A stretch of 64,000 nucleotides of DNA from Shigella phage ESh15. The position numbers and the translations under genes were made by a program. The notes under the pieces are model-generated. The model saw only the letters and a list, made by a program, of their open reading frames with translations. It made no database searches and was not told where the DNA came from. Location: sequence record ON528725. One strand, written 5' to 3'. Position 1 is the stretch's first letter. Every line of letters starts with the position of its first letter. Positions 49,021-49,836 of this stretch are shown here, piece by piece.

Positions 49021-49318
49021 CCTTGTCGGGGTTTCCACCTACTAAGGCAAGTGTTTGTACGAAACGCCGGGACTCGAACCCGGTTATTAAGCAGTTGACG
49101 CTACTCAATATTTTTAAAAGGCCATATCTCGACCATATCCGAACGTTCCGTCAAAAACGCTACTCGGCTTACGGCAAAGATATTTCCTCGAATCGATAAT
49201 TCGGTGCGCCGTTTCTGCTGTGATGTAAGGGGATATTAACGAATCATAAAGATTTATTAAGACCAGTCCTTACTCAGGGAACATCAGTCCGACGTCTTGC
49301 CGGTAGCGACCCGGCTTC
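49021..49318 (-). ncRNA. non-coding region with tRNA-like elements (degenerate tRNA remnant and/or small stable RNA)
   Basis: no ORF; minus-strand CCGGG-TTCGAGT-CCCGG T-arm with an acceptor-like CGGAACG/CGTTTCG pairing but no canonical cloverleaf or CCA; several other stem-loops. Confidence 0.35.
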
Positions 49319-49663
49319 TTATTTTGGCATATCATCAATTTGTTCTCGACGCCGACGCCATAGATTAATCGCTTCATTGGCACATTCTGCGTTTGGTATA
49401 TGACGGCAATAATATAATGATTCGCGTTTCTGGAACCGATGTTGCAATGGAATTTCGTTTAAAAGGTCTTTACGGTCAAAGTATTCAAAACTAGTTAACC
49501 CAGAACGGTTTTTAAGAAACTTCCAATGTCCGAATTCATTTTGAAAATAAACGTAATCAGCGTGTTGATATAACGAATTAATCAACCGGTCGGAAATAAC
49601 TGTATCCTGTTCGTTAAAATAAAACGTTAAATCATGAACTACCAAATAAATATTGCCTTTCAT
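49319..49663 (-). CDS. hypothetical protein
   Basis: 114 aa from internal Met with GAGGAAAAT RBS; begins 18 nt after tRNA-Arg. Confidence 0.45.
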   Translation of the reverse strand: MKGNIYLVVHDLTFYFNEQDTVISDRLINSLYQHADYVYFQNEFGHWKFLKNRSGLTSFEYFDRKDLLNEIPLQHRFQKRESLYYCRHIPNAECANEAINLWRRRREQIDDMPK

Positions 49664-49681
49664 ATTTTCCTCACTTGAAGT

Positions 49682-49758
49682 TGGTCGAGACAGAAGGATT
49701 CTAACCTTCAACCTACGGATTAGAAGTCCGTTGCTCTATACAATTGAGCTATGCCTCG
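49682..49758 (-). tRNA. tRNA-Arg (anticodon UCU)
   Basis: hand-folded cloverleaf: acceptor CGAGGCA/TGTCTCG, anticodon stem ACGGA/TCCGT, loop CTTCTAA, T-arm GAAGG-TTAGAAT-CCTTC, encoded CCA. Confidence 0.75.
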
Positions 49759-49761
49759 GAT

Positions 49762-49836
49762 TGGTGACCCTGGCTGGTTTCGATCCAGCTACCTATCAGT
49801 TATGAGCTGACAGCTCTCCCATTGAGCTACAGGGCC
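49762..49836 (-). tRNA. tRNA-Met or tRNA-Ile2 (anticodon CAU)
   Basis: hand-folded cloverleaf: acceptor GGCCCTG/CAGGGTC, D-arm GCTC-AATGGGA-GAGC, anticodon loop CTCATAA, T-arm GCTGG-ATCGAAA-CCAGC, encoded CCA. Confidence 0.8.

Follow-up and report, generated by a model that had tools for sequence, protein, structure and literature searches.

The tRNA operon of Shigella phage ESh15 and its two stable RNAs

The genome of Shigella phage ESh15 (record ON528725) was analysed over a window of 64,000 nucleotides (nt), to which all positions refer, and the stretch 49021-49318 was studied within it. The window belongs to an RB69/HX01-type T-even phage (Mosigvirus), and the locus is 96-98% identical to that of many such genomes. 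The stretch forms the 3' part of an RB69-type tRNA operon and encodes orthologues of T4 rnaD and rnaC. On the minus strand the operon consists of a putative middle-type promoter, tRNA-Ile/Met(CAU), tRNA-Arg(UCU), a 114-aa open reading frame (ORF), rnaD, rnaC, a hairpin and a terminator, ending at 48987 (Table 1). The element is already known: it is the T4 tRNA operon, with its two classical stable RNAs, in RB69-type form.

Searching with BLASTN, 808 phage records matched 48980-49330, 679 of these with a query coverage of 80% or more, and the records annotating this region use the names rnaC and rnaD. In the T4 record rnaD occupies 71053-71171 and rnaC 70908-71046. The RB5 record places rnaD (121 nt) and rnaC (139 nt) immediately after tRNA-Arg, the GiZh record annotates rnaC and the terminator, and the record of Mosigvirus ATK47 lists tRNA-Met, tRNA-Arg, an RB69ORF150c homologue and rnaC at the same spot. 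Alignment to T4 rnaC and rnaD, which the original prediction had proposed as a check, matched both RNAs and placed their boundaries. In the full-length pairwise alignment, 136 of the 139 positions of rnaC were identical to T4; the three substitutions are one in the T loop (UUCGAGU here, UUCGAAU in T4) and two G.U changes in stems (P2 and P3, described below). Against a covariance model built from the homologues (R1), rnaC scored 158.1 bits (E 4e-38) over positions 1-141. T4 rnaC has the same predicted fold and the same position, being the last gene of the tRNA operon, past rnaD and before a hairpin and terminator, and alignment with T4, RB5, GiZh and ATK47 likewise put rnaC at the 3' end of the operon between rnaD and the terminator. 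The original prediction had taken the stretch for a stand-in for the T4 tRNAs and stable RNAs or for a small stable RNA of unknown function. The second description was apt, the stretch being the orthologues of rnaD and rnaC; the first was not, since these are T4's own two RNAs (136/139 identical for rnaC and 102/121 for rnaD).

The locus is, as had been predicted, a reduced version of that of T4, with two tRNAs versus eight: upstream of the stable RNAs T4 has eight tRNAs and segB, whereas ESh15 has two tRNAs and an ORF. Because T4 holds both RNAs beside its eight tRNAs, they do not replace lost tRNAs. The 5' hairpin, terminal stem and tip type of rnaD as well as its 6-nt spacing to rnaC are all as in T4. 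T4 rnaD starts 1 nt past tRNA-Arg, whereas an ORF of 345 bp is inserted at this point in ESh15, which is a difference of context and not of rnaD itself.

ARAGORN called exactly two tRNAs in the whole window, both on the minus strand, and Rfam called the same two. The earlier reading that only two tRNAs fold cleanly, with 3 nt between them (49759-49761), was therefore confirmed, and so was the absence of a canonical tRNA call by either program in 49021-49318. Searching 48900-49950 against Rfam at E<=10 returned just the two tRNAs and noise, with neither tRNA nor transfer-messenger RNA (tmRNA) in 49021-49318, where only a 17-nt match of the T arm to mascRNA (14.8 bits) appeared. The acceptor stem of the CAU tRNA (GGCCCUG) is the same as that of T4 tRNA-Ile. 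CAU tRNAs of T4-like phages have been proposed to be lysidine-type tRNA-Ile (PMC1524935), and the CAU tRNA of ESh15 is probably of this type. The tRNA-Arg shares 62/77 positions with RB5 tRNA-Arg and 44/77 with T4 tRNA-Arg. A complement of just two tRNAs is a known trait of the RB69-type Mosigviruses. RB69 itself is documented with two tRNAs (PMC1524935).

The pattern TGCTTYA-N11-13-TANNNT, which describes a T4-type middle promoter, occurs at 11 sites in the window versus 1.9 expected, and one of them lies just upstream of the tRNA genes. This MotA-like motif is the candidate promoter of the operon. The whole tRNA cluster of T4 is driven by a middle promoter located just upstream and is transcribed as one ~1.75-kb RNA that ends past the species I gene and serves as precursor of the tRNAs and of both stable RNAs (PMC2330249). 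With the promoter-like motif upstream and the hairpin and terminator downstream of rnaC, the anatomy of the ESh15 operon mirrors that of T4. The hairpin of the 3' trailer is kept in T4, RB5, GiZh and ATK47, and also in Dhakavirus despite the deletion of rnaC; it may be an endonuclease or processing site. The strong terminator that had been predicted at the end of the stretch exists as a hairpin followed by U6, although it lies at 49015-48987 and thus just outside 49021-49318. It reads AGCCCCUUCC-GAAA-GGUUGGGGCU plus U6, and its hairpin has a 2x2 U.U internal loop; tail and terminator together (83 nt) fold with -26.1 kcal/mol. A simple terminator scan did not flag the hairpin at 49015-48987 because of these internal U.U pairs. 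The plus-strand "terminator" that the scan reported at 49299-49315 was discarded as merely the antisense of the rnaD 5' hairpin. Immediately past the terminator, at 48985-48978 of the minus strand, a T4 late-promoter consensus TATAAATA precedes a 206-aa ORF (48942..48322), which falls into PHROG 2280, a group with no function assigned there.

Table 1. Features of the tRNA and stable-RNA operon of ESh15 and of its two stable RNAs (window positions)
Feature	Position	Strand	Basis and remarks
T4-type middle-promoter-like motif (MotA box TGCTTTA, 12 nt, TATTAT)	49899..49923	-	pattern match; putative start of tRNA operon transcript
tRNA(CAU), Met by software, CCA encoded	49762..49836	-	ARAGORN; Rfam RF00005, 59.4 bits
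tRNA-Arg(UCU), CCA encoded	49682..49758	-	ARAGORN; Rfam, 71.1 bits
114-aa ORF, RB69ORF150c family	49319..49663	-	ORF list; annotated homologue in ATK47
rnaD orthologue (T4 species 2 RNA), 120 nt	49203..49322	-	102/121 identical to T4 rnaD; annotated rnaD in RB5 and T4
rnaD 5' hairpin	49315-49299	-	consensus fold
rnaD terminal stem	49296-49290 / 49211-49204	-	consensus fold; closes long irregular hairpin
rnaD hypervariable tip	49269-49229	-	consensus fold
Spacer GAAUUA, 6 nt, between rnaD and rnaC	49197..49202	-	alignment to T4 annotation
rnaC orthologue (T4 species 1 RNA), 139 nt, tRNA-shaped four-way junction	49058..49196	-	alignment to T4, covariance model, fold
rnaC acceptor stem, 7 bp	49195-49189 / 49066-49060	-	fold and covariation
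rnaC long arm P2 (~65 nt, D-arm position)	49188-49119; loop UUGACG 49154-49149	-	fold and covariation
rnaC A/U linker	49118-49111	-	fold and covariation
rnaC arm P3, 10 bp (anticodon-arm position)	49110-49085; loop CGUCAA 49100-49095	-	fold and covariation
rnaC T arm, 5 bp	CCGGG 49083-49079; UUCGAGU 49078-49072; CCCGG 49071-49067	-	fold and covariation
Imperfect hairpin in 3' trailer	49021..49051	-	fold; candidate endonucleolytic processing site
Intrinsic terminator of the operon (GC-rich hairpin + U6)	48987..49015	-	fold; homologous to site annotated as terminator in GiZh

Structure and distribution of rnaC

The 139-nt rnaC folded with a minimum free energy (MFE) of -50.2 kcal/mol (z = -3.97), and none of 200 shuffled sequences folded as well. 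The MFE fold of the window rnaC is the same as the covariation-supported consensus fold, which was obtained with RNAalifold and explicit counting of pairs on 21 distinct sequences from about ten genera. In this consensus 95.5% of the cells were paired and 19 pairs showed a compensatory change. As controls, 0 of 500 shuffles were as good, and sliding the pairing partners by one to three columns lowered the paired cells to 37-49%. Invariant columns make up 52 of the 144 in the alignment, both unpaired 6-nt loops included.

The near-perfect T arm noticed earlier is real and lies on the minus strand, and the acceptor-like pairing noticed with it is a 7-bp stem containing two U.U pairs, an invariant tandem at positions 4 and 5; its third pair switches from A-U to G-C. 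The T arm abuts the acceptor stem, giving a 12-bp minihelix, and its loop UUCGAGU agrees with the motif UUCRANY. One compensatory pair was found in the acceptor stem and one in the T arm (G-C to U-A). The long segmented arm P2 begins right after the acceptor stem. It is followed by an A-rich, invariant linker (AAAAU) and by P3, in which six pairs covary and which is separated from the T arm by one nucleotide. The view that no canonical cloverleaf exists held insofar as no tRNA was called, but the RNA does form an expanded, non-canonical cloverleaf.

With canonical tRNAs (RF00005) rnaC shares the 7-bp acceptor stem and 5-bp T arm, the UUCGAGU loop, the four-way junction and tRNA-like spacers, and its upper half works like that of a tRNA. 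In contrast to canonical tRNAs it is 139 nt long, has the arm of ~65 nt in place of the D arm, a 10-bp arm with a 6-nt loop in place of the anticodon arm, a linker of 9 nt instead of N26, a variable region of 1 nt, the tandem U.U in the acceptor stem and the genomic sequence U-ACA past this stem. It thus departs from the canonical scheme (stems of 7, 4, 5 and 5 bp and a 7-nt anticodon loop), and neither ARAGORN nor Rfam called it a tRNA. Nor does it qualify as a tmRNA: the tmRNA searches of ARAGORN and Rfam were negative, a tag reading frame is missing, and in place of G3.U70 the third acceptor pair is A-U or G-C. The tRNA-like domain (TLD) of tmRNA, the bacterial Y-RNA-like YrlA and mascRNA keep only the acceptor/T-arm "top half" of tRNA, which gives them access to tRNA-processing enzymes. 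This top half is likewise kept in rnaC, which has neither a tag ORF nor a Ro/Rsr-binding stem, and whose lower half with its two predicted kissing arms is unlike that of any of them. Readings of rnaC as a tmRNA, a Y-RNA-like RNA or a tRNA with an intron found no support from ARAGORN or from Rfam at E<=10.

The P2 loop UUGACG is exactly complementary to the P3 loop CGUCAA, and both loops are constant while their stems vary. This pair of loops was present in all of 31 distinct homologues except those of the Marfavirus lineage (6 distinct sequences), which have UUGGCG and CGCCAA; a mixed combination was found in none of the 31. Energies of the loop duplexes are -5.5 and -7.6 kcal/mol for the matched pairs versus -0.4 kcal/mol for mixed ones. 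The two loops are predicted to pair with each other. With its P3 loop matched by the P2 loop, rnaC would have no loop resembling an anticodon loop left free.

The 3' strand of the base helix of P2 is preceded by GG, which may tentatively be regarded as the counterpart of G18-G19 of tRNA, making an elbow contact with the T loop. The first G of this GG is C in three sequences with the T loop UGCAUKC (G.U to C-G), and the change may reflect a G18.psi55-like tertiary pair turned into C-G. A mutual-information scan for tertiary contacts was dominated by phylogeny; its sole notable signal was this G-to-C change by the P2 3' strand together with the U-to-G change in the T loop, in three sequences. 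T loops UGCAUGC or UGCAUUC occur in the rnaC of Kanagawavirus "mime"-type phages and of Winklervirus, coinciding with the G-to-C change in the GG. The sequence past the acceptor stem is U-ACA in ESh15 and in most genera and U-CCA in Marfavirus alone, and the T4 annotation ends rnaC at ..GUA.

Iterative BLASTN revealed homologues of rnaC, nearly all of them unannotated, in Kanagawa-, Winkler-, Kagamiyama-, Karam-, Moon- and Gelderlandvirus as well as in Marfavirus. With pattern scans and a covariance-model filter, the collection grew to 31 distinct sequences, which represent about ten phage genera. Within the tRNA arrays of Karam-, Moon-, Gelderland-, Kagamiyama-, Winkler- and Kanagawavirus, rnaC has spacers of 5-8 nt on either side; in Pet-CM3-4, for example, it lies at 528-668 between tRNA-Trp (449-519) and tRNA-Gly (674-745). 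Stretches retrieved from IMG/VR by pattern scans (68, 113 and 104) were nearly all chance matches, and the covariance filter left only T-even-like contigs; the 12 matches of a metagenome pattern scan were all T-even-like, and 185,579 bacterial and archaeal genomes gave none. The family was not widened beyond enterobacterial Tevenvirinae and Marfavirus, and the loop covariation rests on one lineage. A pattern scan also brought up an unrelated, highly conserved element of ~150 nt (…GGGAGUAGCGUCCCGACCUAAAGAGGAUUGAAAGCAAGUAAAGCAGACCGUGCAUGUUAGGUGUGUGUGAUUGUGAGUAGCGU, then a terminator) on 14 IMG/VR contigs (~8-53 kb, mostly 32-53 kb), which looks like a non-coding RNA of another phage group.

In most T-even-like genomes in GenBank the rnaC/rnaD stretch is left blank or called one to four "hypothetical proteins". 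Rfam has no family for rnaC or rnaD, so the present alignments could seed one. In Jiaodavirus phiA85, the canonical tRNA-Ile(GAU) (353-428) agrees with Marfa/Karam-type rnaC in the complete T arm and in the 5 nt that follow it, and its place in the array is similar (His-Ser-Ile-Trp-Gly compared with His-Ser-Trp-rnaC-Gly). Because of this shared T arm and acceptor strand, a distant tRNA ancestry of rnaC is plausible. The Dhakaviruses AnYang and IME341 have rnaD joined straight to the trailer hairpin, with rnaC deleted, and Dhakaviruses carry a truncated rnaD duplicate of ~70 nt between tRNA-Arg and rnaD.

rnaD and the inserted open reading frame

Over 21 distinct sequences the consensus fold of rnaD had 98.1% of cells paired and five pairs with compensatory change. 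Its 5' hairpin has the form RCCGG-GUCGCUA-CCGGY with a covarying closing pair, and the terminal stem of 7 bp closes a long, irregular hairpin, for the tip of which three unrelated forms were found. In the second position of the terminal stem the window rnaD has A (GACGUCG) where all 20 others have U (GUCGUCG), which results in an A.A mismatch. rnaD was confined to Tequatro-, Mosig- and Dhakavirus-type genomes.

In an evolution experiment of 2025, a single convergent single-nucleotide polymorphism (SNP, position 164264) arose in all lines of the T4-like phage BW-1 adapted to E. coli ECOR34, and virulence on this host increased with it from 0.17 to 0.98; its authors assigned the SNP to rnaD and gave no structural reading of it (PMC12685909). 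When mapped on the BW-1 genome (OR125554.1), the SNP proved to fall in the apical hairpin of rnaD, where it replaces A by G on the RNA strand, CACAG-UUUUA-CUAUG becoming ...CUGUG. The change restores a C-G base pair and the wild sequence of ZN18- and IME341-type relatives, and the ancestral laboratory BW-1 therefore carries a stem-breaking variant. It is the one clue to a function of either RNA and suggests a host-specific role that would depend on RNA structure.

The stretch had been described as ORF-free and adjoining the tRNAs, but the 114-aa ORF had been overlooked and intervenes (49663..49319). Its ATG start is preceded by GAGGAAAAT, and its stop codon TAA shares bases with the 5' end of rnaD. 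The protein belongs to PHROG 3355 (E 2.8e-50; category unknown function), and its homologues form seven clusters, every one of them from phages. No significant match was found in Pfam (best E 0.046, short of the curated cut-off) and no sequence match in the PDB, and an AlphaFold2 (AF2) model (predicted local distance difference test, pLDDT, 72) had no Foldseek match in the PDB at E<=0.001. A 65%-identical copy occupies the same slot in Tequatrovirus BW-1, and the arrangement is also found in other Mosigviruses. Since BW-1 carries the homologue in the same slot, the junction of ORF and rnaD recurs across genera.

Proposed maturation and possible function of the two RNAs

Northern blots of T4-infected cells have shown both RNAC and RNAD (PMC9697503). 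As in T4, both RNAs would be cut from the polycistronic transcript by the tRNA-maturation machinery of the host. With its acceptor/T-arm minihelix and perhaps an elbow, rnaC is a presumed substrate of RNase P, which would cut at the 5' side of the acceptor stem and thereby also free the 3' trailer of rnaD. The 3' ends would then be trimmed back to the terminal stems, with the trailer hairpin as a possible endonuclease site, and the products would build up as stable RNAs that cannot be charged. Both the U-ACA tail and the predicted masking of the 6-nt loop speak against aminoacylation and against a part in decoding. We consider the identity and biogenesis of the rnaC/rnaD pair, as laid out here and with function left aside, highly probable.

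Regarding function, the preferred reading, tentative and itself less likely than not, is that rnaC is a tRNA mimic which serves in trans to decoy or soak up a host factor recognising the acceptor/T-arm end of tRNA and which gives a host-strain-specific benefit, with rnaD acting as a second, faster-evolving RNA beside it. More speculative, and in our judgement rather unlikely, is a version in which the mimic is self-locked: elbow and acceptor end would be kept, and P3 would be masked by a 6-bp kiss with P2 or would serve in dimer formation. Such an RNA would be matured by, and visible to, tRNA-binding proteins, and together with rnaD it would be a host-range or anti-defence decoy, with the apical hairpin of rnaD as the host determinant, which the stem-restoring SNP of BW-1 on ECOR34 suggests. 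Its targets would be effectors by which bacteria attack or sense tRNA at the acceptor end or elbow.

Phage tRNAs are known to counter tRNA-targeting defence, as do T5 tRNA-Lys against PARIS and T5 tRNA-Tyr against retron Eco7/PtuAB. Like these, rnaC and rnaD are encoded in a phage tRNA cluster, are dispensable on laboratory hosts, and may give a host-strain-specific benefit, as the BW-1 SNP suggests. In contrast, the anti-defence tRNAs are functional and chargeable and replace cleaved host tRNAs, whereas rnaC and rnaD have no free anticodon, are probably not chargeable and are not known to be linked to any defence system.

Several points weigh against the interpretation given here. The predicted loop-loop pairing draws on perfect complementarity and a single evolutionary co-change event, and pairing between two molecules in a dimer would fit the loop covariation equally well. 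An intramolecular kiss would need a sharp bend, P2 (~26 bp) being far longer than P3 (10 bp). The boundaries assigned to rnaC and rnaD in ESh15 are carried over from the T4 annotation, and the rnaD in which the BW-1 SNP sits comes from another phage and differs in tip type. Dhakaviruses have cleanly lost rnaC and many T4-like genera have no rnaD, and hence neither RNA is essential. The literature searched assigns no function to rnaC or rnaD (PMC3014915, PMC9697503, PMC12685909); a full-text search, beyond whose reach the papers of the 1970s-80s lay, found no functional study of either RNA. Three papers that the search returned (PMC10690425, PMC9693318 and PMC13454534) were set aside as coincidences of words.

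Among the alternatives, decay of tRNA genes had been offered by the original prediction. The stretch would then be an eroding remnant of the six T4 tRNAs absent here, its T arm surviving by descent, which would agree with the missing tRNA call, with two tRNAs against eight in T4 and with the identity of the T arm and 5 nt of acceptor strand of some rnaC to phiA85 tRNA-Ile(GAU). However, T4 carries the same two RNAs beside its eight tRNAs; rnaC, the best-conserved element of the locus, is 98% identical to that of T4 while neighbouring elements are far less conserved (only 44/77 in tRNA-Arg), and the 19 compensatory pairs over about ten genera and the 52/144 invariant columns with both loops among them also count against decay. 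Conservation and covariation refute this alternative, which we regard as extremely improbable. Even less credible, to the point of being negligible, are small protein-coding genes over the stretch. Many GenBank records place coding sequences here, and ORFs of 58 aa (49023-49199, plus strand), 47 aa (48965-49108, minus) and 37 aa (49270-49383, minus) can be listed, but these are not conserved between genera, homologues show 1- and 2-nt indels and paired substitutions at the RNA level that ignore any frame, and the curators of T4, RB5 and GiZh annotate RNAs. The original view that 49021-49318 is non-coding agrees with this; the stretch contains only short, unconserved ORFs. That rnaC is a non-canonical but translationally active adaptor, an aminoacylated odd tRNA or a tmRNA-like RNA on the ribosome, is very improbable as well. 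Neither ARAGORN nor Rfam at E<=10 called a tRNA or tmRNA, the 6-nt P3 loop has no equivalent of U33 and is predicted to be paired, and a tag reading frame and G3.U70 are lacking. The acceptor stem, the T arm and the canonical T loop would suit an adaptor, yet the T loops of the Kanagawa and Winkler types are non-canonical; Marfavirus encodes U-CCA next to the stem, but outside Marfavirus the genomic sequence there is U-ACA and not N-CCA, and the T4 annotation stops at ..GUA. The GUC within the P3 loop and the GAC within the P2 loop would be the triplets in favour of such a role.

Two further explanations are improbable too, though less so, and both to the same degree. The RNAs could form a purely cis-acting module which serves the tRNAs and the ORF mRNA upstream of it as RNase P "punctuation" and as 3' protection and has no function in trans. 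Their position at the 3' end of the operon right before hairpin and terminator, the presence of tRNA-type processing signals and their dispensability in some lineages would be explained in this way. In six other genera, however, rnaC lies in the middle of the array, where the flanking tRNAs already give punctuation, and punctuation needs neither invariant complementary loops nor the tandem U.U or the AAAAU linker. Discrete stable RNA species accumulate in T4 (PMC9697503), and an rnaD SNP restoring a stem was selected on a particular host. Alternatively, rnaC and/or rnaD could be regulatory RNAs that base-pair as antisense with host or phage mRNAs through the A/U-rich linker or the 6-nt loops. 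Recent papers label them "small regulatory RNAs", without data (PMC9697503, PMC12685909), rnaC has invariant single-stranded segments, and the hypervariable rnaD tip in its three forms would match a fast-evolving interaction surface. No target is known, though, conserved unpaired sequence comes in short pieces (6-9 nt) of low complexity, and the two constant loops match each other instead of being free.

After ~50 years, rnaC and rnaD still count among the earliest RNAs to be sequenced that have no known function, and their stretch is mis-annotated as hypothetical proteins or left blank in many GenBank records. The structural model of rnaC and the mapping of the BW-1 SNP may be new. The comparative model with its tRNA-shaped junction, tandem U.U, co-varying loops and possible elbow contact, together with the mapped SNP, leads to concrete mutations that can be tested. 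If the reading of a self-locked decoy is true, two RNAs that have lacked a function since the 1970s would have one.

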